Shown here in pieces: positions 12,569-49,351 of a stretch of DNA of 64,000 nucleotides. Position numbers and translations under genes: made by a program. The first letter of the stretch is position 1, and the number at the start of each line of letters is the position of its first letter. Origin of the DNA: a virus (lineage: Duplodnaviria > Heunggongvirae > Uroviricota > Caudoviricetes). The notes under the pieces are model-generated. The model did not search any database, was not told where the DNA came from, and worked only from the letters and a program-made list of their open reading frames with translations. The DNA lies in IMG/VR virus record IMGVR_UViG_3300038499_000012, positions 1 through 64,000 of that record; one strand, 5' to 3'.

Positions 12569-13144
12569 ATGACCAAAACATTTGCGATAGGTATTGACTG
12601 TGAAACTGGGGGTTTGGACCCCGAGAAACACGCCCTGCTCTCTATTGGCTATGCCTTGGTCGACAAGTCTTTCAGGGTCATTAGCTGTGGAGATTTCTTC
12701 GTTAAAGCTAACCCCAAGCGGGTCATCCCAGCGGCCCTTCAGGTTAACGGCATCGACATGAAGACGCATAATCAAAGAGCTCAGCACAAAAAGACCGTAG
12801 CCCGCGCACTCCAGAACATCATCACACTCCATTTTGGAGACAAGCCAGCCAAAATCTTTGGACAGAACGTACCCTTCGACGTAAGCTTTCTTAATAAACT
12901 CAGCGTAGACACGGGCTATAAATTCAAATTCGATTACGGATACATAGACACACAGGCATTCACCCGGGTCCTTAAAGCTCTAGGGGAGCTACCTGTAGAG
13001 AATTGCAAGCTCACGACCTTGTGTAAGTACTTCAAAATACGAATAGGAAAAGCTCACACAGGACTCTCCGACATTCTCAGGACTGCAGCACTCCTACGCA
13101 AATTCAAAAGGTCTCTGGTTTTAGACCTAAGTCCACTGAGCTAA
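12569..13144 (+). CDS. DnaQ-like 3'-5' exonuclease (DEDD family)
   Basis: Exo I motif IGIDCETGGLDP and the general layout of epsilon-subunit-like exonucleases. Confidence 0.55.
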   Translation: MTKTFAIGIDCETGGLDPEKHALLSIGYALVDKSFRVISCGDFFVKANPKRVIPAALQVNGIDMKTHNQRAQHKKTVARALQNIITLHFGDKPAKIFGQNVPFDVSFLNKLSVDTGYKFKFDYGYIDTQAFTRVLKALGELPVENCKLTTLCKYFKIRIGKAHTGLSDILRTAALLRKFKRSLVLDLSPLS

Positions 13145-13618: not shown

Positions 13619-14025
13619 AGGTATATAACAGACCTCCGGTGTCGTATCAAAGGGCCCTTCAGTGTATCTTACCAGAAATTGATATGGTGTGTAAAAGTAT
13701 GTTGCTGCCTAATCCTCAAATAAAAGCCGTTAGAGACTTTAGATCCTTAGGAGGATATGAACCTGACTCCTACCTAACGCACCCTTTAATTGTAATCAAT
13801 TTGGATCGATTACCCTTCTCACTACTCAAGAAAGGAGTGGACCTTAAAAGAATATTGAGTATGATTGTCTTGCACGAACTAGGACATGCATACCTAGATA
13901 GCCAAGGGGTTCCTTTGCCTCATGACGAAAAGAACATATACCATTTTTGGATAAAGTATTCCGAGACTAACTCAGTAGACCTTACGGTCTTGAAAGCAAA
14001 CATAATTGTTAAACTGTCGTCATAA
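13615..14025 (+). CDS. putative zinc metallopeptidase (HExxH)
   Basis: VLHELGHAYLD motif (ImmA/IrrE- or SprT-like). Confidence 0.3.
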   Translation: MKVYNRPPVSYQRALQCILPEIDMVCKSMLLPNPQIKAVRDFRSLGGYEPDSYLTHPLIVINLDRLPFSLLKKGVDLKRILSMIVLHELGHAYLDSQGVPLPHDEKNIYHFWIKYSETNSVDLTVLKANIIVKLSS

Positions 14026-14039
14026 GAGGTCAAACAGAT

Positions 14040-14312
14040 ATGTGGCCAGACTGCAAACATTGCAATTCCCCTGCCCGTAACAACCCTAAGACATGCCGTG
14101 CCAAAGGCAAAAAATTGGGCACCATGAAGGATTCCACAGGCAAGATCCCTGAGGTGAGTTCCCATATGGAGGCTCTGCAGCTCATCAAACAGGTCAGCGA
14201 GGACAAAAGAAGTCACTTCATGCTAGAAGATCTGTGTGACTGGCTGGAGCTCAAGATAAAAATAATGGGCACTCTTGCCGGCAGGGGTCTTAAATTGAGG
14301 AAGATATGTTAG
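14040..14312 (+). CDS. hypothetical protein
   Basis: ORF. Confidence 0.25.
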   Translation: MWPDCKHCNSPARNNPKTCRAKGKKLGTMKDSTGKIPEVSSHMEALQLIKQVSEDKRSHFMLEDLCDWLELKIKIMGTLAGRGLKLRKIC

Positions 14313-14345
14313 GGGTAGGATAGTCTGGCATACAAATTTCGAATT

Positions 14346-14404
14346 TCCCCCGTATAATAAAAGTGAATGCAGATCTTGACACGAATCCTTTTTAGTGGTA
14401 TATT
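14346..14404 (+). promoter_or_regulatory. tandem promoters upstream of the cas operon
   Basis: A cccccGTATAATAA motif at ~14346-14360. A sigma70-like TTGACA-N17-TATATT at ~14376-14404. Both lie ~70-130 nt upstream of the first cas gene. Confidence 0.35.
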
Positions 14405-14476
14405 AATCTCTGCCAGGCTATATTCGAGGGTAAAATAGACTTAAGGACGCCATATCAGGTAACCCAAGGAGAAGAT

Positions 14477-16342
14477 ATGATACAAAACGAAATCGACTTC
14501 TGCAGAAAAATTGTTGACCTTGCTGATGCAATCAAATTCCATACCTATTCCGTTCCTGCCGTGACCAAATCCAAACTGAATCCCAAGGGTAAAAAGGCAA
14601 AGCAGAAGGTTTTTCCGGCCTACCGTGCAATTCTCCAACCTGATGGACTTACCTTGTTGCCCCAGCAATATCGTAACGAGAACGTCTTAGAACATGCCTA
14701 CGCCCTTCAATACCGAAACTGTCCAGCCGATACCTCAGAATCCCGAGCAATCTACGGCTCAGATATCCGATTGGAAGTTCGAAAGAAGAAAGAGATCTGG
14801 GTCCGAAATCTTGAAACTCCGCTACTCAATAGCATAGTCTCTTCAGAACTCAGGACCATCAAAAATGCCCTAGCTCTGAGTTCTAAACGGATCCTGGAAT
14901 TCTACCAAAAACGAATGGATGAGTTCACCAATAGGGACCAGAACGGCAACACCCTAGACGATAACGAAGACATCGTATGCGGAATCTTCCTACACATAGA
15001 CTGTTCAATCCTTGGTTACGAACATTGGTACGAGATCCCCGGTGTACTTTCCGCTTCAGATACAGCCGAAATCATGAGGATCACCAACGAAGTTGGTGAA
15101 AAGAAGAAAGAGGCCGCATTTTTGGCCGTACCTGGGGAAGAATGCTATTCACTAGTCAAAAGTCTTCTCAATACGGTTGCATCCGGGGATGAGTCCTCAG
15201 ACAACCAGTTTCAGGATTTTGATTTGGCCGCACGACACAAATCATTCTCGTTAACGTCAGACGATAGACGAATCGTCGCTTTCTATTGGTCAAAAACGAT
15301 GAACATGCTCCGTGTTTCTATTCCCAAGACAAAAGGAGAATATTTCTTCAGAGTTGTGCCGTGCGGTGATTTCAGTCCTATGAATGCCCAAATGTTTATT
15401 GATAACCAAAAAGCATTCAGGGGCAAGTTTGATACCCAAGAGAAAGCCGAAAGTGGGGTATCAGAAGAGGACGATAATATCGAAATTATGCCTGACGAGC
15501 CTATTGATGGGTACGATAAAAAGATCTACAACATGGCCCAACAGGCCCCCTCGGGAATCACCTCGTTCGATATAACCCTTATGCACCGGGAATCCCATGG
15601 ACAGACAAATGTCTCAGAACTATCCAGACTCTACAGAAGTTCGTTCTGCCGGCAACTCAAACGTATCGAGGCGGTCTCGGAAGAAGTCACAAAAAAATAC
15701 AAGTGCACTTGGGAACCCCAGATATGGTCCGCACTGAATACCATCTACTCTCGGTGTGAAAAACGATATCTCAATATCATCGGGCAGATTTTTATGAAGT
15801 TATGGTCCGGAAGCTACAGAGGAATAGCTTCCCTTAAAGAACTTTTTATTGACGGAATACAATACAACATTCGCAATTCGGAAGGGCCTGGTGAATACGC
15901 CCTTCGTGTGGCGTACTTATTCTTGAAAAAACTCAACACAACGGAGGAGCAGATGGATGAAAAATCTTACCGTCTAGGAGAACTCTGTGCCGAGTTCTGC
16001 TGGCCCTTGATCTATCAGATCGGAAGTTTTGATAAGCAGTATTCAGGGTACATCACAAGGAAAGTCAAAAGTGTTGATGAGGTCACTGAGTTCATTGTTT
16101 TCTCCGAGGGAAAACTGATCCTGCATGCAGGTGAAATGATGTATGCCACTGGAAAAGGAGGTCAATTTCCTATCGGAGTAGTTCCAGATACAAGCTACTA
16201 CGCACTGGAAGCTCGAAAGCTCATCAAGGAAGGAATCGAAAAGTTTGATGCGCTTTCCTTTGCCGACGGATACTACTTCATGCGTGGTAACAAATTGTAC
16301 ACTTCCAAAAAAGGAGGCCAGAGTGAAGAATCAAGAGGTTAA
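14477..16342 (+). CDS. putative Cas8-like large subunit (divergent; possibly encodes Cas11 from an internal start)
   Basis: First gene of the cas operon, 621 aa, immediately upstream of cas7 with overlap. I see no recognisable motif; the assignment is positional only. Confidence 0.35.
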   Translation: MIQNEIDFCRKIVDLADAIKFHTYSVPAVTKSKLNPKGKKAKQKVFPAYRAILQPDGLTLLPQQYRNENVLEHAYALQYRNCPADTSESRAIYGSDIRLEVRKKKEIWVRNLETPLLNSIVSSELRTIKNALALSSKRILEFYQKRMDEFTNRDQNGNTLDDNEDIVCGIFLHIDCSILGYEHWYEIPGVLSASDTAEIMRITNEVGEKKKEAAFLAVPGEECYSLVKSLLNTVASGDESSDNQFQDFDLAARHKSFSLTSDDRRIVAFYWSKTMNMLRVSIPKTKGEYFFRVVPCGDFSPMNAQMFIDNQKAFRGKFDTQEKAESGVSEEDDNIEIMPDEPIDGYDKKIYNMAQQAPSGITSFDITLMHRESHGQTNVSELSRLYRSSFCRQLKRIEAVSEEVTKKYKCTWEPQIWSALNTIYSRCEKRYLNIIGQIFMKLWSGSYRGIASLKELFIDGIQYNIRNSEGPGEYALRVAYLFLKKLNTTEEQMDEKSYRLGELCAEFCWPLIYQIGSFDKQYSGYITRKVKSVDEVTEFIVFSEGKLILHAGEMMYATGKGGQFPIGVVPDTSYYALEARKLIKEGIEKFDALSFADGYYFMRGNKLYTSKKGGQSEESRG

Positions 16343-17309
16343 GCAGGTCGAGGTCGAGACCAATGGCGTTAAGAGGGCGGATCTTCTGATTCTGTGGACC
16401 AGCAGAAATTGCATCGTGAACGGTGATCCCTGGACAGGAGAGCAGCGCTATGATGAAGCCACAGGCAGACCTCTGTGCTCTGATGTCAGGCTTAAGGCCT
16501 TCGCCAGATGGTATGCAGACCACATACACCTTTTCGAACCCGGCCATCCTGCTCTGGATGTGTTTTTCAAGGATTTCACGCAGAGTGATATAGCTCTAGC
16601 CAGGGCCGAGAAAGAAGGGGCATCAGGAGCTTCCGTTCGGGTGCGTATGCTCAAGGCCAAGTACAAACCGGAAGAGGACTTGAAGACTCTGGTTCTCAAG
16701 TGCCTCGATTCTCGTGGTTTCGGAAACGTCGTCACGGAGAAGAAGACTCCGGTGCATCTCACAGGCCCGATCCAGTTCGAGCAGCTCAATCCGACTCTGC
16801 ATCAAGTGAAGCTGATGGAAAACCAGAATACCTGTCATCTTCCATCAGATATCAAGAACAATGCAGGAGCAATAGCCACCAGCAGCCTGGTTCCCTTCAG
16901 CATCAACCAAGTGGTCGGCGGGGTCTATTCAATCCTCGCTCTCGAAACCGGCCTGACGGAAGATGATGTCATCCTCATTCTTCGGTGCCTGTGGCGGGGA
17001 ATAAACTGTTACAAGAGCCGGAGCAAGATGGGGCAGAATTCAAGACTGATCTTGAAGATCAACTATCAAGATCTGGCAACAGCAACCGCCGATCTGAATA
17101 CCTTGGTCACACTCAAGAATTCAGAAGACAAAGGCCTTCGCAGAATAGACCAAGCCGTATGGGATTTTTCGAGGCTGGACAATCTCATGAAGGACCCCAA
17201 TGTCGTAACGGTTGAGTATCGTGCGGATTCCTTCATGAAGCCGGTACTCCTGGGTGCCATCTCGAAAGATACGGTTTCTAAAATGGTCGAGTTGCAAGGT
17301 CTCTGGTAA
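16323..17309 (+). CDS. cas7: Cas7 (Cascade backbone subunit; DevR/Csd2/Csh2-like N-terminal motif)
   Basis: GTG start 5 nt after aaggagg; track start 16245 is probably too far upstream. N-terminal NGDPwtgeqRyDeaTGrplcSDVrLKafaRwY resembles the NGDPDxxNxPRiDpeTGxGLVTDVCLKRKIRNY motif of I-B/I-C Cas7 and is also similar to CasC. Confidence 0.55.
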   Translation: MKNQEVKQVEVETNGVKRADLLILWTSRNCIVNGDPWTGEQRYDEATGRPLCSDVRLKAFARWYADHIHLFEPGHPALDVFFKDFTQSDIALARAEKEGASGASVRVRMLKAKYKPEEDLKTLVLKCLDSRGFGNVVTEKKTPVHLTGPIQFEQLNPTLHQVKLMENQNTCHLPSDIKNNAGAIATSSLVPFSINQVVGGVYSILALETGLTEDDVILILRCLWRGINCYKSRSKMGQNSRLILKINYQDLATATADLNTLVTLKNSEDKGLRRIDQAVWDFSRLDNLMKDPNVVTVEYRADSFMKPVLLGAISKDTVSKMVELQGLW

Positions 17310-17638
17310 GAAAAGAGAAGGTAAAGACCTTACACGGAAAAACGTGTAGGGTCTTACCAACTCATAGGAGTACTCGGTCAATTACCACCAGCACAAGGCT
17401 GGAGGCTTGTCCTTCCAAATTTCGTCCAGAGAACGATGACTCTAATGAGTCATAACGGAGGACTATAAGCCAATTGACTGTGGCTCATTATCATACAGCA
17501 TGCTGTATGATAATCACTTGTACTCAGAACTCTGTGAGTACTCGCTACAGTTCCTAAGATACATTATGGAAGAGAGCACGAGTCATTACTCGCTTCCTCC
17601 GCCACCACAAGGGTAGCGGTTTCCGCTCGTGAGGTTTT
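17310..17638 (+). other. structured non-coding spacer inside the cas operon (hairpins and a perfect 28-bp palindrome)
   Basis: No ORF. Imperfect ~16-bp hairpin with 6-nt loop (ggtaaagaccttacacg/cgtgtagggtcttacc) at ~17320-17358. atgactcTAATgagtcat at ~17436-17453. Perfect 28-bp palindrome attatcatacagca|tgctgtatgataat at ~17487-17514. gtactcagAACTctgtgagtac at ~17520-17541. Stem ggaag...cgagtCATTactcg...cttcc at ~17568-17610. Confidence 0.5.
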
Positions 17639-18385
17639 ATGAAAGCCGTAACCATACGAATTTCTGGTAGCCGGGCGCATTTCAAGCGGCCAAATACCAA
17701 CAACAATCCATGTACTTATGCCGTTATTCACAAACCAGCGCTTTTTGGAATCATGGGCGCTGTCTGTGGAATTCAGAGGGCAGAAATGGCATCCCTCTAT
17801 CCTAAGCTGTGCAGTGAAAATAAATCTGACGGCATAAAGATGGCCCTTCGAGTTCTAAATCCTATTTCAAAAGAGGCACATGGATTCACAAAACGAAATG
17901 TCACTCCAGTTCCTGAGCGCCAAGGGGATTTGAAGGGCTTTAAGAACAATTCCCGTGGCAGAAGGTTCTGTGAAGTCCTTCGAGATCCTTCTTATGAGGT
18001 CACACTGGGATCTCAGAATCCTCAATTCGTTGAGATATTATCGACCTTCAAAAATCAGATACTAGCCAATAGGTCGATTTATCCACACTACCTCGGCAGT
18101 ATTAACTGCATGTGTCAGCTGGCCTTCATATCGGACTCAGAAGTATCGGAAGAAAAAAACGGTGAGTTCTCTACCCGACACATTGTTACGAAAACAGGCC
18201 ATGAAATTTCTGACACAGGAGATATGGATATTCTGTGTGAGAATATCCCGATCGCAGAAGATGCCAATAGGAGATACACAGCCACTGCCGATGTCTATTG
18301 TTTCTGGGAAGGCCTACTGGACGTAAAAGGTTCTTATCAGACCATTTCCAACCAAACCGGAGATGCCACAGCATGTTTCATCTAA
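17639..18385 (+). CDS. cas5: Cas5
   Basis: N-terminal ISGSRAHFKRP...ALFGIMGAVCGIQR resembles E. coli CasD (LAGPMQAWGQP...LLGLLGACLGIQR) and the AhFrxP signature of Cas5 proteins. Confidence 0.6.
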   Translation: MKAVTIRISGSRAHFKRPNTNNNPCTYAVIHKPALFGIMGAVCGIQRAEMASLYPKLCSENKSDGIKMALRVLNPISKEAHGFTKRNVTPVPERQGDLKGFKNNSRGRRFCEVLRDPSYEVTLGSQNPQFVEILSTFKNQILANRSIYPHYLGSINCMCQLAFISDSEVSEEKNGEFSTRHIVTKTGHEISDTGDMDILCENIPIAEDANRRYTATADVYCFWEGLLDVKGSYQTISNQTGDATACFI

Positions 18386-20961
18386 GCTCCTATACGCTCA
18401 ACTGCATCTCGCACCCAGGCAAAAAACTCCTTCGTCATTCACAAGGTACGACGAAGGGACTCCTTGATCTATTGCCCAAAATAGCACGCCACTTAAAAAA
18501 AGTTGCTGCTGTGGTGGGCAATTTTCATGATACAGGAAAATTCCTTAATCGATATTTTCAGGACAAGCTTAGAGGAATCCTTTATAAAGACAAGTACACA
18601 CATCACTCCTACCTATCCATGATGTCCCTTTTGGGTTTTTTGCTTCCCGGTAATCATCAATACCGCTCCTACAGGGATATGGTAATAGCCCTGATATGCA
18701 TCATTAAACACCACGGAGGCATTCCGAATCTGGATAAACTAATCAACGACAAAGAACTAAAACAAATGCGGGATTACATCACAGAAGTCCAGTCAAAAGG
18801 ACTTCTTCCAGATATAACGGAATTCAGGCATCAAATAGGATTCGATGGAGACACGAAGCCTGTGTCAGAAATCAAGGACAGCTTGATACGATGTATTTTT
18901 TCTAGGGCAGATAAAATAAACAGCATTTTTACTCGAATCAGCGAGGAAGATCGATTGGGATTTTGGCTTGATTTGAGAATGGTGTTCTCCTGCTTGGTGG
19001 CTGCGGACAAGCAGGATGCAGGAGATCACAAACTTGATATAAATGACAAATTCCTTCGAAAGAAATTTCATAAAGGTATTAAGGCTTACATTGATAATCT
19101 TTCTAAAGTAGTAGCGAAAACGGAGAACGCTAGGAAACTGAACCTTATCCGAACCGAGATGAGAAAAGTGGCGGTACAGAACCTGATAGAAGTCGTAGCC
19201 GCCAATCCTGATAGGCGTCTATTTCAGCTCACATACCCGACAGGAGCGGGAAAAACGGTCATTCTGTACTGCTGTGGCTCGGTGATTCAACTGAAGAAAG
19301 GTTCCCGAAGAATAATATATTCCGTACCTTTTCTTTCTATAACGGATCAGGTTGCTACCATCATAGAGGAAATCTTCCCAAACGAGGAAGATAACATTCA
19401 GCGCATTGATTCCAAGGCCCAACCGGATGAAGATTTGGACTATGACCTGACATCAAGCGGTGATGATGTATCACCCTTGATGGAGGCGCTAAAAAAGTTC
19501 ATAAAAAACTTCATAAAGTTTACACTTAAAAAAGATATCAGTGACATCTCCGCAAACAAAATTCTTAAACAAGAACTCCAGGAGATTTGCTTCTCTTACC
19601 CATTGATCACAACTACATTCGTGCAGATGTTCCAAACTCTGACTACAGCCTCCAACCGTGGACTGATGAGATACAACGGGCTCTCTGGGTGTATATTTCT
19701 GATAGATGAAATTCAGGCCCTCCCACCGAGGCTCTACAACTTTTTAGTGGCACTTCTGGATGCCTTCTGCCGGCGCTTTGATAGCTATGCAGTTATATCA
19801 TCCGCAACAATGCCTTATTTCGATATACCGACGAAGTCAAAAGAAGGCCAGAAAATGTTTCCTGGCTACATGCCCCCTATCGAAATAGGAGACATCAGCT
19901 ACTTTGATGACCCCATCTTCAATCGGTATGATATCGTCGGTATAAAGACCAAGATGACCGTCGATAGTATTGCAGAGAAAATCCGCAAAGAGGAAAAATC
20001 CACTCTAGTGATATTGAACACGAAGAAGGATGCCAAAAGAGTCTATAAAAGAGTCAAAAAGACCGGAGAGGATGCAATTCTGCTTACAAGTTTGAATTGT
20101 GACCGGCAGGATATTTTAGACCTGTGTCAAAAAAAGTTAGATAACCATGAGCGCTTCTTTCTCATATCTACAAATCTCATAGAAGCTGGTGTGGATATCG
20201 ACTTCTGCACAGTATATCGAGAAATAGCCCCCCTGCCGAATATCATTCAGAGCGCAGGTCGAGGTAATAGAAATGGCAATCTCTACCCAGATAGAGCAAC
20301 CATTTATGTTTTTGATTTGATCGACGACAAGGGACGATCCCGATCAAAGTGTATATACAATGGCGATGTCGATGGACCATCCTTAGAATATGCTAAAAAA
20401 ATATTCCTTCTATCCGACAGGATTGCCACACCTGAATTAGAACTCCTGTCCCTTCAAAAGGCTTTCTTTATGGAACAGGGAGAAAATCTCTATTTTGGAA
20501 CTTGGGATTTCTCGATGCCTATCGAGGATGAGGAAGAAGATGAAGAAGAATACAAAACAAAACCAAAAAGGATGAACTTCGTAGATCTCATCAATGGATT
20601 CCAGTATGGAGACATTGGAAGATTTAGGCTGATTCCTGAATGCCGCTACGGAGCGCAGGTTCAATTCTATGTTCCAGAATCGGACGAGGATAAGAGATTT
20701 GAGAAGTTGGTGGAGTATCAGGCCGCGATTCAACAATCGGAAGAAGAGGACGTCCCTATTAAGACAAGGCTGGCTAATAAAAGGAAACTCCATCTACACC
20801 TTCGGGAAATGATGCCTCGGGTAGTTCAGATGAATCTTGGCGAAAAGGACCCTCCTCTTTCAGAGTTAGCAGAGTATGAAGGTATGGTGAGCCATTTGTA
20901 TAAACTAAAGCTGAAATACTACAGTAAGGAATACGGTATAACCTGGGAGGAACAACAATGA
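18373..20961 (+). CDS. cas3: Cas3 (HD nuclease + SF2 helicase)
   Basis: HD motif (VVGNFHDTGKF). Walker A YPTGAGKT. DExQ box LIDEIQALP. SAT motif SATMP. Helicase C-terminus QSAGRGNR. Start taken as the Met overlapping the cas5 stop. Confidence 0.8.
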   Translation: MFHLSSYTLNCISHPGKKLLRHSQGTTKGLLDLLPKIARHLKKVAAVVGNFHDTGKFLNRYFQDKLRGILYKDKYTHHSYLSMMSLLGFLLPGNHQYRSYRDMVIALICIIKHHGGIPNLDKLINDKELKQMRDYITEVQSKGLLPDITEFRHQIGFDGDTKPVSEIKDSLIRCIFSRADKINSIFTRISEEDRLGFWLDLRMVFSCLVAADKQDAGDHKLDINDKFLRKKFHKGIKAYIDNLSKVVAKTENARKLNLIRTEMRKVAVQNLIEVVAANPDRRLFQLTYPTGAGKTVILYCCGSVIQLKKGSRRIIYSVPFLSITDQVATIIEEIFPNEEDNIQRIDSKAQPDEDLDYDLTSSGDDVSPLMEALKKFIKNFIKFTLKKDISDISANKILKQELQEICFSYPLITTTFVQMFQTLTTASNRGLMRYNGLSGCIFLIDEIQALPPRLYNFLVALLDAFCRRFDSYAVISSATMPYFDIPTKSKEGQKMFPGYMPPIEIGDISYFDDPIFNRYDIVGIKTKMTVDSIAEKIRKEEKSTLVILNTKKDAKRVYKRVKKTGEDAILLTSLNCDRQDILDLCQKKLDNHERFFLISTNLIEAGVDIDFCTVYREIAPLPNIIQSAGRGNRNGNLYPDRATIYVFDLIDDKGRSRSKCIYNGDVDGPSLEYAKKIFLLSDRIATPELELLSLQKAFFMEQGENLYFGTWDFSMPIEDEEEDEEEYKTKPKRMNFVDLINGFQYGDIGRFRLIPECRYGAQVQFYVPESDEDKRFEKLVEYQAAIQQSEEEDVPIKTRLANKRKLHLHLREMMPRVVQMNLGEKDPPLSELAEYEGMVSHLYKLKLKYYSKEYGITWEEQQ

Positions 20962-21482
20962 AAGCATTTATTGTCGAGGGCGTCACATTAGGAGAAGACA
21001 GTTATACCAAGCATCAGCAGATTGCCGACCTGATTGATAGCAAAAATACTCGATTCCATGAAAGAGAAGACGGTTCCATCGTTCTTCTCTCAGAAACAAT
21101 GCCTGAGGGATCCAAATACACGGCCGTTGGAATGTCTTATTCTAAGGGTGAGATTCTTTCTTTCTCTATCAGAGCTTGTGTCTCAAAACGGTCAGGGGAT
21201 AAAGAAATTCCAATAACCAATATGACAGAGATAGTCAATTGGATAACCAGAAAGGCCAGAGAAAATGGTTTTGTTATCAACTTTTTTGACAATATTGAAG
21301 GCCCTTGTGTCAGAGATGTGACCAAGCCTGGATTTGTTTTCAAAATCAGTACCGTAGATTTTGCCGGCAACCTTACAGTCCTTGACAAGGACTTATTCGA
21401 CCGGGCCTTGAGAACCGGCATTGGAAGAAAAAAAGCTTTTGGCTGTGGAGTTCTCTGTGTTACGCGTAGTACAGATGTTTGA
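20958..21482 (+). CDS. cas6e: Cas6e (CasE) crRNA endoribonuclease
   Basis: C-terminal G-rich loop GIGRKKAFGCGVLCV matches E. coli CasE GIGPAKSMGCGLLSL. ~175-200 aa. ATGA overlap with cas3. Confidence 0.65.
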   Translation: MKAFIVEGVTLGEDSYTKHQQIADLIDSKNTRFHEREDGSIVLLSETMPEGSKYTAVGMSYSKGEILSFSIRACVSKRSGDKEIPITNMTEIVNWITRKARENGFVINFFDNIEGPCVRDVTKPGFVFKISTVDFAGNLTVLDKDLFDRALRTGIGRKKAFGCGVLCVTRSTDV

Positions 21483-21638
21483 TTTCCCGCCCACGCGGGA
21501 GTTTAATAATGAGACGCACTACTGTGCAGGAAGATCTTTCCCGCGTGACGCGGGAGTTGAATGTATAGAGTGTCGAGAACAGATGCAGCGTCATGATCTT
21601 TCCCGCATCACGCGGGGGTTGAATTAAGAGATTATTAA
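21483..21638 (+). CRISPR. mini CRISPR array (3 repeat-like units, 2 spacers) between cas6e and cas1
   Basis: Units tttcccgcccacgcgggagtttaat, ctttcccgcgtgacgcgggagttgaat and ctttcccgcatcacgcgggggttgaat, separated by spacers of ~28 and ~35 nt. Confidence 0.6.
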
Positions 21639-22508
21639 ATGATCTACACAGATTTAAGTGGCCGCCTACCTTTTGTCTATGTAGAAATGGGAAAGCTTAG
21701 GGTATCAGGAGCTTCCCTTGTTTTTGTCAGTGAATCCTCTGTGATTGCTATCCCCGTAGGTAGGATAGCTGCCGTATTCCTTGGACCTGGAATTTCTGTT
21801 ACGGACAGGGCTGTTCATTTGGCCGCTACTGCCGGAAGTATGCTTCTATGGGTAGGTGAGGGAATTACCAAGTGCTACGCAGTGTTACCTACACACCATC
21901 AATCCTCAAAGAATCTTTTATCCCAAATTGAGCTCCTCACCAAACATAAGACTAAAATCTTAAAACGATACACACTGCTTAGGTTTGGAAAAAAACTGCT
22001 GGCTTGGGAACGGCTTAATGAAAATAAGATACGAGGGATAGAGGGCAGCTTCATGAGAAAGGTATATGTAGAATGTGCTAAAAAATTCGGTATTCCCTAC
22101 GGAGGTCGATCCAAAGAGGGGTCCTGGGAAAACAATTCGGTCTATAATAAAGCCATCTCTATATGTAATTCTTACTTATACGGCATGGCTACAGCGGTTT
22201 TGATTGCCTTGGGTTACTCCCCAGCTCTTGGAATTCTACATAATGGAGACTCCTTCTCATTGTCCTTTGATATTGCCGACCTTTATAAACACAAGTTTTC
22301 GATACCTTTGGCATTTGAAGCGTCAAAAAAAGTCTTGGGATCGGATAACATCAGAATAGAAAAAGAAATCAGGATCATGGCTTTAGAAAAAATGAAGGGC
22401 ACTAATTTCGTTAAAGCTATGGTAGAAGATATTCAGGAAATATTCGATGACGGTATTCATCACGAAAAGAATATCAACGAGGACGAGGCGACTTCTGTCA
22501 GCTTATAA
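21639..22508 (+). CDS. cas1: Cas1 (type I-E-like integrase)
   Basis: VGRIAAVFLGPGISVTDRAVHLAATAGSMLLWVGEG aligns closely with E. coli YgbT VGSVACIMLEPGTRVSHAAVRLAAQVGTLLVWVGEA. GIEGSFMRKVY and YGMATAVLIALGYSPALGILHNG are also conserved. Confidence 0.85.
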   Translation: MIYTDLSGRLPFVYVEMGKLRVSGASLVFVSESSVIAIPVGRIAAVFLGPGISVTDRAVHLAATAGSMLLWVGEGITKCYAVLPTHHQSSKNLLSQIELLTKHKTKILKRYTLLRFGKKLLAWERLNENKIRGIEGSFMRKVYVECAKKFGIPYGGRSKEGSWENNSVYNKAISICNSYLYGMATAVLIALGYSPALGILHNGDSFSLSFDIADLYKHKFSIPLAFEASKKVLGSDNIRIEKEIRIMALEKMKGTNFVKAMVEDIQEIFDDGIHHEKNINEDEATSVSL

Positions 22509-22734
22509 TGCTGAGGTATCTTTAGGGGTTTACGTAGGATACCACAACGAAGGCGTGTATATGCGTATTCTTAAATGGTTGAGAAAAAATATAAAGGGGA
22601 ATGAAAAAATACTTATATTGCGTCCGGATAAATCCTGGATTGGCTTCTCAGATGAGTATTTTAATTGGGAATCTCAAGCGGTGTACTTAGATGGTGTTAA
22701 GTTATATAAACCTCTTCATTATTCTTCCGAATAA
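22447..22734 (+). CDS. cas2: Cas2 (type I-E-like)
   Basis: MTVFITKRISTRTRRLLSAYNAEVSLGVYVG aligns with E. coli YgbF ...[22 protein letters not shown]. Overlaps the cas1 3' end. Confidence 0.65.
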   Translation: MTVFITKRISTRTRRLLSAYNAEVSLGVYVGYHNEGVYMRILKWLRKNIKGNEKILILRPDKSWIGFSDEYFNWESQAVYLDGVKLYKPLHYSSE

Positions 22735-22797
22735 CCCATGTTTTAGTGCCCGTTCTTTGAAATAACACATTGATGTAAAAGGACATACCCTTTAAGG

Positions 22798-25700
22798 GTC
22801 TTTCCCGCGTCACGCGGGGGTTGAATATTACATTGTCGGGGTATTCGGGGTAGTCGGATGTCTTTCCCGCGTCACGCGGGGGTTGAATGAGTATGCCCCT
22901 TATACCGTAGGAGGAGACCGGTCTTTCCCGCGTCACGCGGGGGTTGAATTGGACTACGTATACGATACCTGTAGGTCTGTCTGGTCTTTCCCGCGTCACG
23001 CGGGGGTTGAATTCCGGTAGATTTGAGATCGTGTATTAGTTGGGGGTCTTTCCCGCGTCACGCGGGGGTTGAATCCCGAGTCCCTGTCTGTCGTAATATT
23101 GTGATCCGTCTTTCCCGCGTCACGCGGGGGTTGAATTATGGGAATAGGTGGGCCATCTATAGTAGTCTGGTCTTTCCCGCGTCACGCGGGGGTTGAATAA
23201 GAACTCTATAGCAGCGTAAGGAACTTTTGTTTTGTCTTTCCCGCGTCACGCGGGGGTTGAATTATCTACCCGACCGGGAATTCTTCCTCGGTCAGGTCTT
23301 TCCCGCGTCACGCGGGGGTTGAATCTTATCAAGTATGTACACAGGGTATGTTGTGGAGTCTTTCCCGCGTCACGCGGGGGTTGAATAATCGTCTGACCGT
23401 GCACGGACGCCCTCGGTTTGGTCTTTCCCGCGTCACGCGGGGGTTGAATGCCTGTGCACGTTATGGATGCAGACTGAGCGGCGTCTTTCCCGCGTCACGC
23501 GGGGGTTGAATATACTCCATGATCGCAGAGTGCATAGCACTGTTGTCTTTCCCGCGTCACGCGGGGGTTGAATCCACTAAATTGATCTATGATCACAGGG
23601 GGAAGTCTTTCCCGCGTCACGCGGGGGTTGAATGCCTGTGCACGTTATGGATGCAGACTGAGCGGCGTCTTTCCCGCGTCACGCGGGGGTTGAATGATGT
23701 GGATTTGAAGAAACTCGATATACCCGATTGTCTTTCCCGCGTCACGCGGGGGTTGAATCATCTTGTCCCCGTTTTTTGTACCGTCATAGTTGTCTTTCCC
23801 GCGTGACGCGGGAGTTGAATCATGGTAACGTCACGTCCAGACCGTGTCGCAGCGTCTTTCCCGCGTGACGCGGGAGTTGAATTCCCCGTGTGGTCAAAGT
23901 GGCTGGTAAAGTTGTCTGTCTTTCCCGCGTGACGCGGGAGTTGAATACAATCAGCTCAGTTCCGAACCGGCAGACGATCGTCTTTCCCGCGTGACGCGGG
24001 AATTGAATTTCCCGAAGTAGTTGGACAGAACTTCGTCCATGGTCTTTCCCGCGTGACGCGGGAGTTGAATATTCCCCCAATCCTCCGTTGTCCAACCCAG
24101 TTTGAGTCTTTCCCGCGTGACGCGGGAGTTGAATCCTACTTCAAACACGGACTTTTCAGCTGGTGGTCTTTCCCGCGTCACGCGGGGGTTGAATATGGAC
24201 GAGGCCTATGTTGATATCTTCAGCAGGTCTTTCCCGCGTGACGCGGGAGTTGAATCATTTCTCCGATACGCCTATGGTCAGATTTATTGTCTTTCCCGCC
24301 TACGCGGGAGTTGAATTGTTTACGATTTAAGAAAAGAGGGCTATTTGGAACATGTCTTTCCCGCCCACGCGGGAGTTGAATACCAAGACACGAATAGAAA
24401 TGGTGTTTCAGTCTTTCCCGCGTGACGCGGGAGTTGAATACTCTCGATTCGTGGTTTTATGCCAGACTATCTGGTCTTTCCCGCGTCACGCGGGGGTTGA
24501 ATCTATTATTCGTTGCTCTCGCAGGAAAGTCTTTCCCGCATCACGCGGGAGTTGAATGTGGTCAAGCGGGTTCTCACCGGATTCTGCGTCGTCTTTCCCG
24601 CCCACGCGGGAGTTGAATCAGCGGAATGCTAACCGGGGCAATATCCATTCCGTCTTTCCCGCGTGACGCGGGAGTTGAATAATCGGCTGTGTAGGAGGGA
24701 GGAGAGTGTGAAGTCTTTCCCGCATCACGCGGGAGTTGAATCCTGTACGATGAGTTCTTCTCCAAGGCGAAGTCTTTCCCGCGTCACGCGGGAGTTGAAT
24801 CTCATCAACAGCGTCAACACGTACCATCAACAGCGTCAACACGTACCGTGGAACGTCTTTCCCGCCCACGCGGGAGTTGAATTGGGGGTATCTATCAACG
24901 GGTCCCCCGTTTTGTTGTCTTTCCCACGTGACGCGGGAGTTGAATTATCATCTGCTTGTATGCCTCAAGGCAGACCTGGTCTTTCCCGCGTAGGCGGGAG
25001 TTGAATAATCCACTACGCAGACGAGATCATTAGTGATAGTGTCTTTCCCGCCTACGCGGGAGTTGAATACCGCCATCATCCGACGCCCGAACCTAGTGGT
25101 GTCTTTCCCGCGTGACGCGGGAGTTGAATTAAACACGGATCTTCGGCGACGACATTACCCAGTCTTTCCCGCACCACGCGGGAGTTGAATATTTCGAACC
25201 TACCTAGGGATAGTAATGAGGTGGTCTTTCCCGCCAACGCGGGAGTTGAATTCTCGAGGCGCTCTTGAAGGTTGTCAACCCGCAGTCTTTCCCGCATCAC
25301 GCGGGAGTTGAATAGGCATCCGAATAACGAAACCAGAAACGTTCTGTCTTTCCCGCCTACGCGGGAGTTGAATTAACCGATTGACTTGTCAAGTGCTAGT
25401 AGTGATGTCTTTCCCGCCTACGCGGGAGTTGAATTACACTCCATATGATCCGGAACCAATCCAGAAGAGTCTTTCCCGCCTACGCGGGAGTTGAATCATA
25501 TCTCCATAAACATTCGTCAAGAAGTTTGGTGGTCTTTCCCGCACTACGCGGGAGTTGAATCATCATGTCGTTCTCGCCAAGGAATGAACGGAATCTTTCC
25601 CGCACCACGCGGGAGTTGAATTGTAGGCCGTCCTACGCGGTTTGGTGGGCACTGCGTCTTTCCCGCCCACGCGGGAGTTGAATAGGCATCCGAATAACGA

Positions 25701-26369
25701 AACCAGAAACGTTCTGTCTTTCCCGCGTCACGCGGGAGTTGAATACAATGTCATCTCAGGGTGGTGTACTGGCGAATCTGTCTTTCCCGCGTGACGCGGG
25801 AGTTGAATCCTTCTGGACATACATGCAGAGACCCAACAAAGGGGTCTTTCCCGCGTGACGCGGGAGTTGAATCCCGTACCCTCGTTCCACGCTATTGACA
25901 CGCCGGTCTTTCCCGCGTGACGCGGGAGTTGAATTTCCTCGGTCGGGAACGTCGTTTCCAGGTCGTCAAGGTCTTTCCCGCCTACGCGGGAGTTGAATAC
26001 GACTATGGGAAGCAAATCAAGGATGTCGTAATCTTTCCCGCATCACGCGGGAGTTGAATGTGGTAGGACCCTGTATCTCAGGCTGTATCTTAGGCCGAGA
26101 AGTCTTTCCCGCCCACGCGGGAGTTGAATCACCGGCGTACAGATGGGTGCTGCCATGCAGCAGTCTTTCCCGCGTAGGCGGGAGTTAAATTATTCGTTTG
26201 TGGACCATGCCTTGACCTAGTCTTTCCCGCGTCACGCGGGAGTTGAATAGCTGCCGCTTCTTTTGCAGCTCTCACCGTCGGTCTTTCCCGCCCACGCGGG
26301 AGTTGAATCACACCCTGCTGGAAGAACGTATGGTCCGTCACTGTCTTTCCCGCGTAGGCGGGAGTTGAA
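22798..26369 (+). CRISPR. CRISPR array, 58 repeats (28-29 nt) and 57 spacers (mostly 32-33 nt); leader on the cas2 side
   Basis: Consensus GTCTTTCCCGCGTCACGCGGGGGTTGAAT with hairpin cccgcg/cgcggg followed by an 8-nt handle (I-E style). Repeats 1-16 are identical; repeats 17-58 carry ...GCGGGAGTTGAAT with many loop variants (TGAC, CTAC, CCAC, ATCAC, ACCAC, CAAC, GTAGG). Degenerate repeat remnants extend to ~26500. Confidence 0.95.
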
Positions 26370-26563
26370 TAGTTGAATAGTTGAATCTAAGAGTAATGGA
26401 AGAATTATTTTGTAGTTACTTTTCCCATCTACATAGAATGGGAGTTAAATAGGCTATATTCGAGGGATCAAATTTCCCGCGTAAGCGGGAGCATTTTATT
26501 ATGTTTTTTGGATACGGGTGTATAATAAGAACGGGTATAAGGAGTATTTCCCGCGTCAAACGG

Positions 26564-26929
26564 ATGTATCATGAAAGCATACACCATCACACACAATCCC
26601 CGAACGACCCTGATAAAGGGGGCAGTATGGACGATAGTAGCTCTGGGACTACTATTCATACTCTCAGTAGTCCTGATCATCCTATCCGTGTCTTGTACCA
26701 CACAGACCAGACACTACTCTTGGAAGTCGAAATGTGTACGACCGGTGCCAACATACACCGGGTCAATCAAATCCGAGCCGTCTACTATAACCTCATAGAC
26801 CTCATCAACCGGTCCCAGCCCAATGAGAAAACCACCCTTATGGAAGGATACCTTCATCATGTTGAACAACTGTTTCAATCGTTTGTGGCCACGGGCATCA
26901 TCAAGCGACTCCCCCATATTGACCTCTGA
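26564..26929 (+). CDS. hypothetical protein
   Basis: Internal Met of track ORF 26501, downstream of a GTATAATAA motif at ~26515-26529 and aaggagt; the alternative-frame 75-aa membrane ORF 26571..26798 is also possible. Confidence 0.2.
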   Translation: MYHESIHHHTQSPNDPDKGGSMDDSSSGTTIHTLSSPDHPIRVLYHTDQTLLLEVEMCTTGANIHRVNQIRAVYYNLIDLINRSQPNEKTTLMEGYLHHVEQLFQSFVATGIIKRLPHIDL

Positions 26930-27464
26930 TGCCACAACCATTATCAGCCCTACCTACACAGCCATCTCCACGGTTACAGTAGGCCTGGACTACCAACTGT
27001 CCCCAAACTTCACCTTCGGAATGCTCACCAAAACCGAACATAGGGAATTCCTCGAGCTCAACCGAAAAGAAGGGGCCCAAAAACTCACAAACCTCGCCAG
27101 ACTGTGTAACGAGATTCTGGAACCCGTCAGAACCTTCATGGGCTCAGCACTCATTACCTCCGCATTCCGCTGCCCAGCCCTCAATACGGACATCGGAGGG
27201 GCCAAGAACTCTCAACACGTTCAGGCCGAGGCCGCGGACATGGAATTCACCGGAGCTACGGAAGGGGCCCCTCTGAGAGAGGCATTCAACAAAATAGCGT
27301 TCACATCAACCATTCAATACTCGCAGATCATACTCGAATTCGGGCAATGGATCCATCTTGGCCTTATAAATGAAATCCTGTACCCGGGAAGGAAATTGCA
27401 GAAGCTCATAGCTTCAACCGTGAATGGAAAAACTGTGTACACTGCAGTGACAAAATCCATCTAA
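26823..27464 (+). CDS. peptidase M15-family (VanY/L-Ala-D-Glu peptidase-like) cell-wall hydrolase, candidate endolysin
   Basis: LSPNFTFGML... and ITSAFRCPALNTDIGGAKNSQHVQAEAADM match the Peptidase_M15 signature (ITSGYRxxxxNxxxGGxxxSxHxxGxAxD). True start probably downstream of the track start. Confidence 0.5.
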   Translation: MRKPPLWKDTFIMLNNCFNRLWPRASSSDSPILTSDATTIISPTYTAISTVTVGLDYQLSPNFTFGMLTKTEHREFLELNRKEGAQKLTNLARLCNEILEPVRTFMGSALITSAFRCPALNTDIGGAKNSQHVQAEAADMEFTGATEGAPLREAFNKIAFTSTIQYSQIILEFGQWIHLGLINEILYPGRKLQKLIASTVNGKTVYTAVTKSI

Positions 27465-38171: not shown

Positions 38172-38693
38172 TCAATTTCCTTCGCTAACAGTATGATCGG
38201 TCAGATATCCTATTTTCAAATCAAGTTTCTTAAAATCCGCACATACTCCCAAGCAGTTACATCCACAGTCATTGTGAAATTTAATGTTCCGCAGACTGGA
38301 ATTCCTAATCAAAATACAGGCAATATCAACATGCATCATATGATCAACAACCTTCAGTTGATAATCCCTAGTCCAACAGCACACCGCTCCATGATCTTGA
38401 TTCACCGACAGAAACTGGATCATCCTCTGAACGGTATCTGATTTTAGGATGACATCCCGATTCATCATCAAAAAGTATTCATCATCAGGCCAGTTCTTCA
38501 GCGCACAATCCCTGAGAATATTCCGACACTCTGTTATCGATAGAAGACCCTTAGTCTGATCAGGCTGACTCGGATCATCTCTTTGAGGCCTGGATACACA
38601 AACCGGCTCCAGTGGCACTGTTTGATTTGCCAGCCCATACAGAACCTTTCTGTGGAGCTCCATGCCATCCTTTAGCGGGATGAGTGCTTTCAC
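38172..38693 (-). CDS. hypothetical protein
   Basis: ORF inside the tail-fibre cluster. Confidence 0.3.
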   Translation of the reverse strand: MKALIPLKDGMELHRKVLYGLANQTVPLEPVCVSRPQRDDPSQPDQTKGLLSITECRNILRDCALKNWPDDEYFLMMNRDVILKSDTVQRMIQFLSVNQDHGAVCCWTRDYQLKVVDHMMHVDIACILIRNSSLRNIKFHNDCGCNCLGVCADFKKLDLKIGYLTDHTVSEGN

Positions 38694-41080
38694 AGGTGGC
38701 CACCGCCATATTTCAAGAGGATTCGAGCTACCTTCCCATTATTAGCCGGCACGAAATATGCGTACTTATCATCTATGAATCCTCCGCTGAATGAAGTAGA
38801 TCCAAGCAATCTGGCATAAATACTTCCAAATTGCACACAGGCGTAAACATCTCCGTTAGGAGCTGCGGCCATACTGCTCCACAGTCGGGACGTCTGTCCC
38901 AATGGAAGGAAATCTCCTACGCCAATCGTCTGCTTATAAATATCTCCATTCTCAACACAGGCGTAAACATCTCCGTTAAAAACTGCAGCCATGCCGTGCC
39001 AGTATCTGGCTGTCAGTCCCAATGTAAGGAAATCTCCTACACCACCCGCCTGCTTGTAAATGTTTCCAGGGCCATACACACAGGCATAGACATCGCCATT
39101 AGGAGCTGCGGCCATGCCCCTCCAATTTCTGGACGACTGTCCTAATGCAAGGAAATCTCCTACGCCCCCCGTCTGCTTATAAATGTCTCCACCTTGCACG
39201 CTGGCATAGACATTACCATTAGGAGCTGCGGCCATGCAACTCCAATTTTGACTCCCTTGTCCTAATGCAAGGAAATCTCCTACACCCCCCGTCTGCTTGT
39301 AAATGTCTCCACCATACACACAGGCATAGACATTACCATTAGGAGCTGCGGCCATGCCCCTCCAATTTTGACTCCCTTGTCCTAATGCAAGGAAATTTTC
39401 TATGCCTCCCGTTTGCTTGTAAATGTCTCCAGGACCATATACACAGGCATAGACATCACCATTGGGAGCTGCGGTCATGCCCATCCAGTATCTGGACGTC
39501 TGCCCTAATGTAAGAAAAGCACTCGCATCTGTAGAGGCAATCATATACGGAAAAAGATTCAGCACGCTCACTGTAGTGAAATCATACAAATCCACCCGAG
39601 CTAACTTGCATCCTGATCCACCTTTGTTTGGTACCAAATATCCGTACCGACCATCAGTGAATCCACCCTCAAATCCTACCAAGCTTGCATCCGTATTTGC
39701 CAAATTAAGGTATGAAACAGAGGTGAAATCCGTCAGATTAATCCTAGTGAAGTAACCATGATAGGCTGTTCCATCTAAAGTATGAGGTACAAGATATGCA
39801 CAGCTTCCATCCGTGAATCCTCCGCTGAATCCTTTTAGATTGGCGTTGTAGTCCGTTAGATTCAGAATACCAATGCCGGCAGCAGCGAAATTGGTAAGAT
39901 CTACTCGTACAAACTTTCCGAATGCAGCACCGTTGTTGTAAGGAACATAGTACCCGTATTTTCCGTCTGTGAATCCACCTCTGAAACCCTTCAGGCTTGA
40001 ATCAGTAAGGGCCAGATCCAATACAGTTGCTGTAGAAAAATTACCAAGATCTATCCGTCCTATATGTCCTGAAGTACTTCTATCTGGTACGTAATATCCA
40101 TAGGCACCATCCGTGAATCCTCCCCAGAATCCATATAGTTCTGAATCACTGGCTGGCATATTAAGAGACATTACTGTAGTGAAATCTGAAAGATCTATTC
40201 TACATGCTCTACCTGACGTATCACTACCATTTGGAACACAATACCCATATCTTCCATCCGTGAATCCTCCCCTGAATTTTCTTAAATCTGCGTGTGTTGA
40301 TGTCAAATTCAAAATACGTACAGAGGAATCATAAGGGTCTACCCTAGCTATTTTTCCATAATTGGTATTAGGAACAAAATAAGAATATCTTCCGTCAGAA
40401 AATCCTCCACTAAATCCAGTCAGGTCTGTATCCGCATCCGACAGATTTATAACGGTTGGCCTACCTAATGCATAGTAAGGAGAGTATCCACGAAGTCCGG
40501 TGTACCCCTGTACTCCTGTCTGACCTACGAGTCCCGTCTGTCCTATAAGTCCTGTTTGACCCTGAACTCCTGTTTGGCCTTGTACACCAGTCTGCCCTTG
40601 TACTCCTGTCTGCCCTATGAGTCCCGTCTGCCCCTGTATTCCTGTCTGCCCTATGAGTCCCGTCTGTCCTTGTACACCAGTCTGTCCCTGTACTCCTGTC
40701 TGACCTATGAGTCCCGTCTGCCCTGTGAGTCCCGTCTGTCCTGTGAGTCCTGTTTGACCCTGAACTCCTGTTTGGCCTTGAGTACCGCCGCTCGTTATCA
40801 TCGCAACCCAATTGGCGTTATTTGTACCATCAATAAGCTGCCAGATAACGTTATCATCAATCTGATATAGGGCCATGCCTTCGACACGAAAGGCATCAGG
40901 AAAACTGGATCGATCGACAGCGGAAGAGACGGTTCTCCATCCTCCAGGATAAGACATAGTACCGTCTACTTGGGCATTACCAGTAACATGAAGTCTTTGG
41001 AGAGTGTAGCTATCCGAGGCGTCCAATTTGGTATGATCAATAGCTCCGTCTGCTATCCATCGGCCTAATATCTGAGACAT
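38690..41080 (-). CDS. tail fibre protein with collagen-like GQTG repeats and ~47-aa tandem repeat modules
   Basis: Conserved N-terminus RWIADGAIDHTKLD. About 35 G-X-Y triplets (GQTGVQGQTGLTGQTG...). Repeats of ...DLxDFtTVxxLNLxxxDxxLxGFxGGFTDGxYGYxVP and NGDVYACVxGGDIYKQTGG. Confidence 0.55.
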   Translation of the reverse strand: MSQILGRWIADGAIDHTKLDASDSYTLQRLHVTGNAQVDGTMSYPGGWRTVSSAVDRSSFPDAFRVEGMALYQIDDNVIWQLIDGTNNANWVAMITSGGTQGQTGVQGQTGLTGQTGLTGQTGLIGQTGVQGQTGVQGQTGLIGQTGIQGQTGLIGQTGVQGQTGVQGQTGVQGQTGLIGQTGLVGQTGVQGYTGLRGYSPYYALGRPTVINLSDADTDLTGFSGGFSDGRYSYFVPNTNYGKIARVDPYDSSVRILNLTSTHADLRKFRGGFTDGRYGYCVPNGSDTSGRACRIDLSDFTTVMSLNMPASDSELYGFWGGFTDGAYGYYVPDRSTSGHIGRIDLGNFSTATVLDLALTDSSLKGFRGGFTDGKYGYYVPYNNGAAFGKFVRVDLTNFAAAGIGILNLTDYNANLKGFSGGFTDGSCAYLVPHTLDGTAYHGYFTRINLTDFTSVSYLNLANTDASLVGFEGGFTDGRYGYLVPNKGGSGCKLARVDLYDFTTVSVLNLFPYMIASTDASAFLTLGQTSRYWMGMTAAPNGDVYACVYGPGDIYKQTGGIENFLALGQGSQNWRGMAAAPNGNVYACVYGGDIYKQTGGVGDFLALGQGSQNWSCMAAAPNGNVYASVQGGDIYKQTGGVGDFLALGQSSRNWRGMAAAPNGDVYACVYGPGNIYKQAGGVGDFLTLGLTARYWHGMAAVFNGDVYACVENGDIYKQTIGVGDFLPLGQTSRLWSSMAAAPNGDVYACVQFGSIYARLLGSTSFSGGFIDDKYAYFVPANNGKVARILLKYGGGHL

Positions 41081-41095
41081 TGCGAATGTTCCTGA

Positions 41096-42781: not shown

Positions 42782-42808
42782 TCCTGCTCAATCCGTGCTA
42801 AAAGATTA

Positions 42809-43993: not shown

Positions 43994-44002
43994 ATCTTCT
44001 CC

Positions 44003-45112: not shown

Positions 45113-45113
45113 A

Positions 45114-45812: not shown

Positions 45813-45821
45813 GATGATTCC

Positions 45822-49117: not shown

Positions 49118-49351
49118 ATGGTCAGATTACCGAACAATAAGGTCAACATTACCTGGGAACAGCTGAAAGCCGCTACGGGTATGTCTGAGACCTTTTACAT
49201 TGAATTGAGTGAGTGCGAGAGGTACCACGACCTGAACGAGAGCTACAAGAAAACACGGGAACCGTACACGAAACCTGAATGCAGGACGATTAGTTTTCGG
49301 AAGGAACTCCATGAAACTGGCAACGGAAGCGGAAACGACCACTGTTTCTGA
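49118..49351 (+). CDS. hypothetical protein
   Basis: ORF with RBS aggaaggag. Confidence 0.3.
   Translation: MVRLPNNKVNITWEQLKAATGMSETFYIELSECERYHDLNESYKKTREPYTKPECRTISFRKELHETGNGSGNDHCF

Follow-up and report, generated by a model that had tools for sequence, protein, structure and literature searches.

A divergent phage-borne cas8b with a probable nested cas11 in a CRISPR-Cas locus of mixed type I-B and I-E parentage

The 64,000-nucleotide (nt) stretch of DNA analysed here, positions 1 to 64,000 of IMG/VR virus record IMGVR_UViG_3300038499_000012 (Caudoviricetes; hereafter the window), carries a CRISPR-Cas operon whose genes all run in one direction in the order cas8-cas7-cas5-cas3-cas6e-cas1e-cas2e, followed by a CRISPR array. 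The first gene of this operon is an ATG-initiated open reading frame (ORF) of 621 codons found exactly at 14477-16342 on the + strand, encoding a protein of 71.2 kDa, and it is preceded by the Shine-Dalgarno (SD) motif AAGGAG at 14466-14471 (+), 5 nt before the ATG, with a calculated duplex energy of -8.5 kcal/mol against the anti-SD of the 16S rRNA. Approximately 70 nt 5' of the gene lies a predicted sigma-70-like promoter (14376-14404, +) in which TTGACA and TATATT are separated by 17 nt and the -10 element is extended by TG; agreeing with the consensus at 11 of 12 positions, it ranks first in 14000-18000, as a consensus match alone. We propose that the gene is a highly divergent cas8b encoding a Cascade-type large subunit, and that it probably also carries, nested in frame at 15953-16342 (+), a separately translated cas11.

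An earlier note on this DNA had called the 621-residue protein unrecognisable, while pointing out that its position and size suit a large subunit and that it has no motif matching Cas8b. As regards Pfam and NCBIfam the lack of a motif is borne out: neither library matched the protein or any of ten relatives, including canonical members of the Cas8b1 profile family, and because those canonical members are missed as well, the libraries have no model for this Cas8b subfamily and their silence says little. The statement does not extend to PADLOC, whose Cas8b1 profile (PDLC01107) aligns to residues 225-551 with E 3.5e-20. The same profile reaches 1e-25 to 1e-33 on close relatives and 1e-89 to 1e-192 on distant ones, the latter being those recovered with a profile of the window Cas8b; to canonical Cas8b1 relatives the window protein is only ~17-24% identical. 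Sequence searches of the PDB with the single protein, with a 140-sequence profile and with a C-terminal profile returned chance matches only. An AlphaFold2 model computed from a 140-sequence alignment was confident, with a predicted local distance difference test (pLDDT) score of 88.4 and a predicted template modelling score of 0.87, and in a Foldseek search of the PDB with this model all of the best nine matches were to Cas8c chains from type I-C Cascade (E 2.4e-7 to 2.4e-3), the tenth-ranked match being far weaker (E 0.97) and no solved Cas8b appearing among the matches. Identity to the Cas8c/Cas11c structures (7kha and 8dex from Desulfovibrio vulgaris; 8g9s, 8g9t and 8g9u, with the entry title 'Type I-C CRISPR-Cas3 for genome editing') is 10-12%, with template modelling (TM) scores of 0.39-0.49 over the whole chain and up to 0.49-0.52. 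The gene stands directly 5' of I-B-type cas7, cas5 and cas3 (Cas7/Csh2 3e-31, Cas5b 5e-26, Cas3b 1.4e-107). Position, profile and fold thus agree and support a divergent large subunit of Cas8b type, predicted to take part in reading of the PAM (protospacer adjacent motif), Cas3 recruitment and assembly with Cas5, Cas7 and CRISPR RNA; 'unrecognisable' was too strong a word.

The second part of the argument concerns the last ~130 residues, which the same note had suggested could be an internally initiated Cas11. In the AlphaFold2 model a loop at residues 487-494 separates helix 473-486 from helix 495-514, and the latter opens a C-terminal module in which three helices (495-514, 516-529 and 533-549) are followed by a beta-hairpin (554-567) and two further helices (570-585 and 592-612). 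Methionine 493 lies in this loop, encoded by the ATG at 15953, and the peptide quoted in that note (MDEKSYRLGELCAEF) starts there and runs for 129 codons to the stop, giving a predicted Cas11b (M493-G621) of 129 residues, 14.6 kDa and isoelectric point 5.9 that is at the same time the Cas8b C-terminal domain. By structure comparison this 129-residue product has a Cas11-like helical-bundle fold. The codons of T-E-E-Q preceding M493 read ACGGAGGAGCAG and contain the SD motif GGAGGAG at 15943-15949 (+), 3 nt from the ATG, with GGAGG at 5 nt. Its duplex with the 16S anti-SD is calculated at -9.5 kcal/mol, a value that only 2% of the gene's codon positions reach, and the mean for annotated starts of the window is -7.4 kcal/mol, so that the internal site equals genuine starts in this respect. 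M493 is moreover the sole in-frame ATG, GTG or TTG with a strong SD in the last 165 codons.

A separate source for Cas11 was sought in and around the operon. Between cas8 and cas2 every + strand ORF of at least 80 residues is assigned; the 329-nt gap between cas7 and cas5 was ruled out as the site of a separate cas11, its + strand ORFs being of at most 38 residues; and the 18 flanking ORFs were likewise eliminated, with no PADLOC match to Cas11 or Cse2. The earlier statement that there is no separate cas11 therefore holds within the operon, the cas7-cas5 gap and these 18 ORFs. A system with no Cas11 function at all, or with Cas11 encoded elsewhere, in which the fold match would reflect the generic resemblance of helical bundles, strikes us as very improbable.

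Close relatives of the large subunit are few. A word-indexed homologue search of 5.8 billion proteins returned Cas8b itself and one relative of 29% identity, and since this left only a single distant relative, the two-sequence profile was run exhaustively against 1.84 billion cluster representatives, which gave 139 proteins. Eighteen of these 139 fall at E < 1e-30 and are mostly of 566-636 residues with an N-terminal 'MLxNEL' motif, together with a few shorter fragments; the remainder form the broad canonical Cas8b1-profile set, aligned mainly at profile positions 370-580. In the 140-sequence alignment a methionine occurs within 12 residues before a conserved S-x-x-(L/Y)-x-x-G motif in 119 of the 132 informative relatives, or 90%, against a background of 16% for random 12-residue windows, and several of the exceptions have their methionine a few residues further upstream or carry a valine that could represent a GTG start.

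The ribosome-binding signal is conserved along with the methionine among relatives that use SD initiation. An SD-like motif precedes the homologous ATG, which lies 117-131 codons from the stop, in all six of the SD-using relatives with readable DNA: AAGGAAG in L001 (-5.7 kcal/mol), GAAAGGGG in L009 (-7.0), AAGGAGGAGGAA in L010 (-12.2), AAAGGAGAAG in L011 (-8.7), AAAGGAGAAA in L012 (-8.7) and, for the split gene described below, GGAAAGGAAG in L005 (-5.6). The residues encoded around the internal start differ between these loci. Four Bacteroidota relatives keep the methionine and have no SD before it, and in the one Bacteroidota locus checked, L014, ordinary gene starts also have none (mean -0.6). 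Retention of the methionine without an SD in these hosts implies that the signal follows the initiation mode of the host, as would be expected of a start codon, and that the protein sequence does not impose it.

In one lineage the C-terminal module is a gene of its own. The large subunit of L005-L008 has only 531 residues, stops 8 codons after the equivalent ATG and has no fused Cas11-like domain, and the module is instead encoded immediately 5' of cas7 by a separate 136-residue gene that lies in another frame and overlaps cas8 by 23 nt (cas8 and cas11 together at 6428-8411 in L005 coordinates). Seven contigs with this split form are on record; the four that were read come from four samples, three of them ENA assemblies and the fourth a JGI metagenome, and all four have the same cas8/cas11 junction. 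Because the module is a separate gene in another frame, it can only be made there as a free protein, barring an undocumented frameshift. The C-terminal segment can thus exist as an independent gene product in a relative of the window gene. Two other possible stand-alone genes were noted. The 118-residue gene P0130 (L013) was set aside, as several cas genes on its contig are broken in a manner that suggests assembly indels, and P0140, of 126 residues and directly 5' of cas7, is a further candidate.

Synthesis of Cas11 from within a large-subunit gene is not a new mechanism, since it is established for types I-B, I-C and I-D: experiments have demonstrated it from within cas8b, cas8c and cas10d (10.1101/2020.04.18.045682; PMC11899642). 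The earlier note had named cas8 as the host gene in all three types, which is correct for I-B and I-C, but in I-D the host gene is cas10d (10.1101/2020.04.18.045682). The I-B precedents are Haloferax volcanii (PMC11899642), Thermotoga maritima I-B1 (PMC13199841) and the reporter assays of McBride et al. (10.1101/2020.04.18.045682). The window gene resembles these nested Cas11b cases in standing first, before cas7-cas5-cas3, in lacking a separate cas11, in having a conserved in-frame start ~120-130 codons from the stop with a ribosome-binding site, and in a predicted product of ~15 kDa (14.6 kDa here; T. maritima Cas11 is 15.1 kDa, PMC13199841).

Several points count against independent translation from ATG 15953, and most of them would suit a rival account in which the C-terminal helical domain acts only while fused to Cas8b, as in type I-F1 Cas8f, so that no free Cas11 is made and the methionine and the purines before it are incidental to a charged linker. 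Lys, Glu and Gly codons, which are purine-rich, abound in this linker, and the SD-like stretch may have arisen by chance. Ranked among the codon positions of their own genes, the internal SD motifs fall between 0.5% and 10% from locus to locus, and two relatives reach only the top 9-10%. Local mRNA structure at the internal start is weaker than the gene mean in five of six loci and within the top 12% in two of those five, which is neither distinctive nor clearly open. The methionine count treats relatives without phylogenetic correction. Finally, the cryptic internal site of T. maritima yielded no Cas11 in Escherichia coli (PMC13199841), which shows that a conserved site need not be efficient. 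A purely fused domain is nonetheless at odds with the frequency of the methionine relative to its background, with the presence of an SD at every homologous ATG in SD-using relatives despite differing residues and its absence in the non-SD Bacteroidota, with a lineage that encodes the domain solely as a separate gene, and with the report that co-purification of T. maritima Cas8b1 depended on Cas11 (PMC13199841). On balance we regard this account as unlikely, if less so than the other rivals.

A free small subunit might also be released by proteolytic cleavage of the Cas8b linker in place of internal initiation. The predicted exposure of loop 487-494 would allow this, and, according to McBride et al. 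(10.1101/2020.04.18.045682), an earlier I-B study took a C-terminal Cas8b fragment for a cleavage product; this fragment, however, began with methionine and was reinterpreted as the outcome of an internal start. Cleavage could not raise the yield of Cas11 above that of Cas8, and it leaves the conserved SD and ATG and the split-gene relatives unexplained, so that we give it very little credence. The suggestion that the C-terminal ~130 residues correspond to an internal Cas11 product accordingly gains from the SD and in-frame ATG in the linker, the Cas11-like fold, the conserved methionine and the split relatives, all of it computational, and we consider independent translation of a nested cas11 from ATG 15953 probable.

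Should this be correct, ribosomes initiating at ATG 14477 would produce a 71-kDa Cas8b that ends in a helical, Cas11-like domain of 129 residues, and independent initiation at ATG 15953, guided by GGAGGAG, would produce that domain alone as a 14.6-kDa protein. Judging from work on types I-B, I-C and I-D, several copies of Cas11 would be made per Cas8b. If they behave as in the solved I-C Cascades and in the biochemically characterised complexes of types I-B and I-D, the free copies may form a minor filament on the 'belly' of the Cas7 backbone, where they would stabilise the displaced, non-target DNA strand of the R-loop, and the Cas11-like domain fused to Cas8b would cap this filament. Without Cas11 the large subunit may fail to assemble, as reported for T. 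maritima. Use of the internal site, and the copy number and placement of Cas11 in the complex, are inferred from these systems.

The end of cas8 also carries the start of the following gene. The cas7 SD motif AAGGAGG (16311-16317, +) and GTG start sit within the disordered tail shared by Cas8 and Cas11 (residues 616-621, pLDDT <50), which suggests that translation of cas7 is coupled to each of the two reading events upstream of it. The I-B-like cas7 itself (16323-17309, +) overlaps the end of cas8 by 20 nt and is matched by PF05107 (2.9e-27) as well as by the Csh2/Cas7b profile. It is followed by an I-B-like cas5 at 17639-18385 (+), with matches to the Cas5b profile PDLC02096 and to TIGR02592 (4e-21), and by an I-B-like cas3 encoding an HD nuclease and helicase at 18373-20961 (+), matched by the Cas3b profile PDLC01759; the called cas3 start is ATG 18373, and TTG 18298 is an alternative open start.

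The 329-nt insert between cas7 and cas5 (17310-17638) is non-coding and has no counterpart of similar size in relatives, where the gap is 27-63 nt. It is dense in perfect palindromes, such as ATTATCATACAGCA/TGCTGTATGATAAT, and its RNA has a minimum free energy of -123.9 kcal/mol, with z = -8.7 against shuffled sequences. It has no Rfam match and no second copy in the window, and an Rfam scan of 14000-27000 returned nothing credible. The insert could be a structured RNA, a remnant of a mobile element or a regulator internal to the operon.

Downstream of cas3 the operon changes character. The gene at 20958-21482 (+) is a cas6e encoding a repeat endoribonuclease of I-E type (TIGR01907, 54.1 against a curated cut-off of 45.2; PF08798, 4e-18), the one at 21639-22508 (+) is a cas1e (TIGR03638, 225.6 bits against a cut-off of 215.6), and the one at 22447-22734 (+) is a cas2e (PF09707, 8e-8). 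On the window Cas1 the Cas1b profile reached only 8.7e-11, compared with a Cas1e score above its cut-off. For the interference proteins the balance is reversed: Cas7, Cas5 and Cas3 are best matched by I-B profiles, and I-E profiles are weaker on them (Cas5e E 0.03; Cas3e 3e-26 versus 1e-107 for Cas3b). A canonical I-B complement of cas6b with cas4-cas1b-cas2b was not recovered. Because Cas6, Cas1 and Cas2 are of I-E type and cas4 is absent, the locus is an I-B/I-E hybrid and not a canonical I-B system; by profile assignment it joins I-B-type Cas8b, Cas7, Cas5 and Cas3 to I-E-type Cas6e, Cas1e and Cas2e.

Comparison with the neighbouring subtypes is consistent with this assignment. Canonical I-B loci differ from the window in having cas6b and cas4 where the window has cas6e, cas1e and cas2e, and the window locus stands in a phage-like setting. 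The nearest cellular relative, L014 in a metagenome-assembled genome of Spirosomataceae (Bacteroidota), is likewise a member of the Cas8b1 profile family (E 2.7e-130) and shares the cas8b-cas7-cas5-cas3 core and a conserved methionine before S-x-S-Y-x-x-G; unlike the window it has the order cas6b-cas8b-cas7-cas5-cas3-cas4-cas1b-cas2b, lies on a chromosome outside any phage-like context and has no SD at the internal methionine. Type I-C, despite providing the closest solved folds, processes CRISPR RNA (crRNA) with Cas5c and has no Cas6, whereas the window system has Cas6e, and by profile its Cas7 and Cas5 are closer to I-B than to I-C. Type I-E Cascade has a separate Cse2/Cas11e gene, and the window has neither Cas8e/Cse1 nor cse2; its Cas7, Cas5 and Cas3 are not I-E-like, and its gene order, cas8-7-5-3-6e, departs from the I-E order cas3-8e-11-7-5-6e, although Cas6e, Cas1e and Cas2e are of I-E kinds. 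A literature search for an I-B/Cas6e hybrid or a phage-borne I-B system found no description, which is not proof of absence.

The hybrid layout is shared by the close relatives. The order cas8-cas7-cas5-cas3 is common to L001, L005, L010, L011 and L012 (the L009 contig ends after cas5), and all clade members long enough to tell have cas8-cas7-cas5-cas3-cas6e(-cas1e). The window looks like a piece of a large phage genome, with features at 38690-47933 (-), 49311-51212 (+) and 59983-61752 (-) that comprise collagen-repeat tail-fibre genes, a phage-type DNA helicase gene and an rIIA-like gene, the product of the last having as its best GenBank match the 462-kb uncultured phage LR756500.1 at 38.6% identity. 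The same Cas8 sequence is also on record on a 120,760-bp contig, and the flanks of the relatives consist of runs of small unannotated ORFs on the same strand. In a search of one genome each of 185,579 species there was no Cas8b relative above 24% identity, those found being 22-24% identical; a single-protein search of IMG/VR viral contigs with Cas8b gave no related locus; and tblastn of Cas8b against GenBank phages gave no match. We therefore offer, with somewhat more doubt than conviction, the view that these loci form a rare, apparently phage-restricted clade representing an undescribed I-B variant, in which Cas6e would dock on an I-B backbone, an I-B interference core would be served by I-E processing and adaptation, and the nested and stand-alone forms of cas11 would capture a step of gene fission or fusion.

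The CRISPR array (22798-26248, +) comprises ~55 units of a 29-nt repeat, GTCTTTCCCGCGTCACGCGGGGGTTGAAT, and spacers of ~33 nt; 42 repeats were found at no more than 3 mismatches, and the repeat folds into a GC stem-loop. In its distal part (23792-26248) the repeats show a variant form, GTGAC...GGGAG in place of GTCAC...GGGGG, with growing degeneracy and irregular spacing, and this distal decay is consistent with a leader on the cas2 side of the array, near 22735-22797. The spacer at 23450-23482 recurs unchanged three units further on, at 23634-23666, and Tandem Repeats Finder detected super-periods of 125-186 nt in 22860-23700, where some non-adjacent spacers are alike; both could stem from segmental duplication in the array or from more than one acquisition from related targets. 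The spacer at 24440-24473 has, at its PAM-distal end, a 14-nt exact match to 14319-14332, just 5' of the cas8 promoter. Self-regulation of cas8 through this spacer was considered and the match judged to be chance, as 0.31 such seeds are expected over all spacers. Two spacers were scanned against viral contigs and gave no target, hence no PAM was inferred.

The interval from the cas6e stop to the cas1 start holds a mini-array (21483-21624). It consists of a degenerate repeat at ~21483-21507 and a near-perfect pair, at 21534-21562 and 21596-21624, whose members start with ATC, not GTC, and flank the 33-nt spacer GTATAGAGTGTCGAGAACAGATGCAGCGTCATG. The rest of the window contains no match to this spacer, and L011 and L012 have no gap of this type between cas6e and the next gene. 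On the other side of the operon, 1.3 kb 5' of cas8, lies a gene for a DEDDh exonuclease of the RNase T/DnaQ-like kind (12569-13144; PADLOC 'DEDDh, CAS-associated' 6e-19; PF00929). DnaQ-like domains trim prespacers in some I-E systems. The enzyme could serve prespacer trimming in this locus, which has no cas4, or could equally be an ordinary phage exonuclease.

For annotation, the case is a reminder that a cas8 of this kind is invisible to Pfam and NCBIfam, and that reconstitution of the complex would need Cas11 to be supplied separately, since the complex may otherwise not assemble. As an instance of internal translation it is a well-supported new example of a known trick; what may be new is its hybrid, phage-associated setting. 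At the level of the system, a phage would carry a complete, adaptation-competent I-B/I-E hybrid with an array of ~55 repeats, in which modular shuffling reaches as far as Cas6. For the evolution of the small subunit, nested and split cas11 side by side, with an initiation signal that depends on the host, make an unusually clean comparative case for internal initiation, and, if the clade is what we tentatively take it to be, its nested and stand-alone forms would show how a separate cas11 gene and a C-terminal domain of Cas8 turn into one another.

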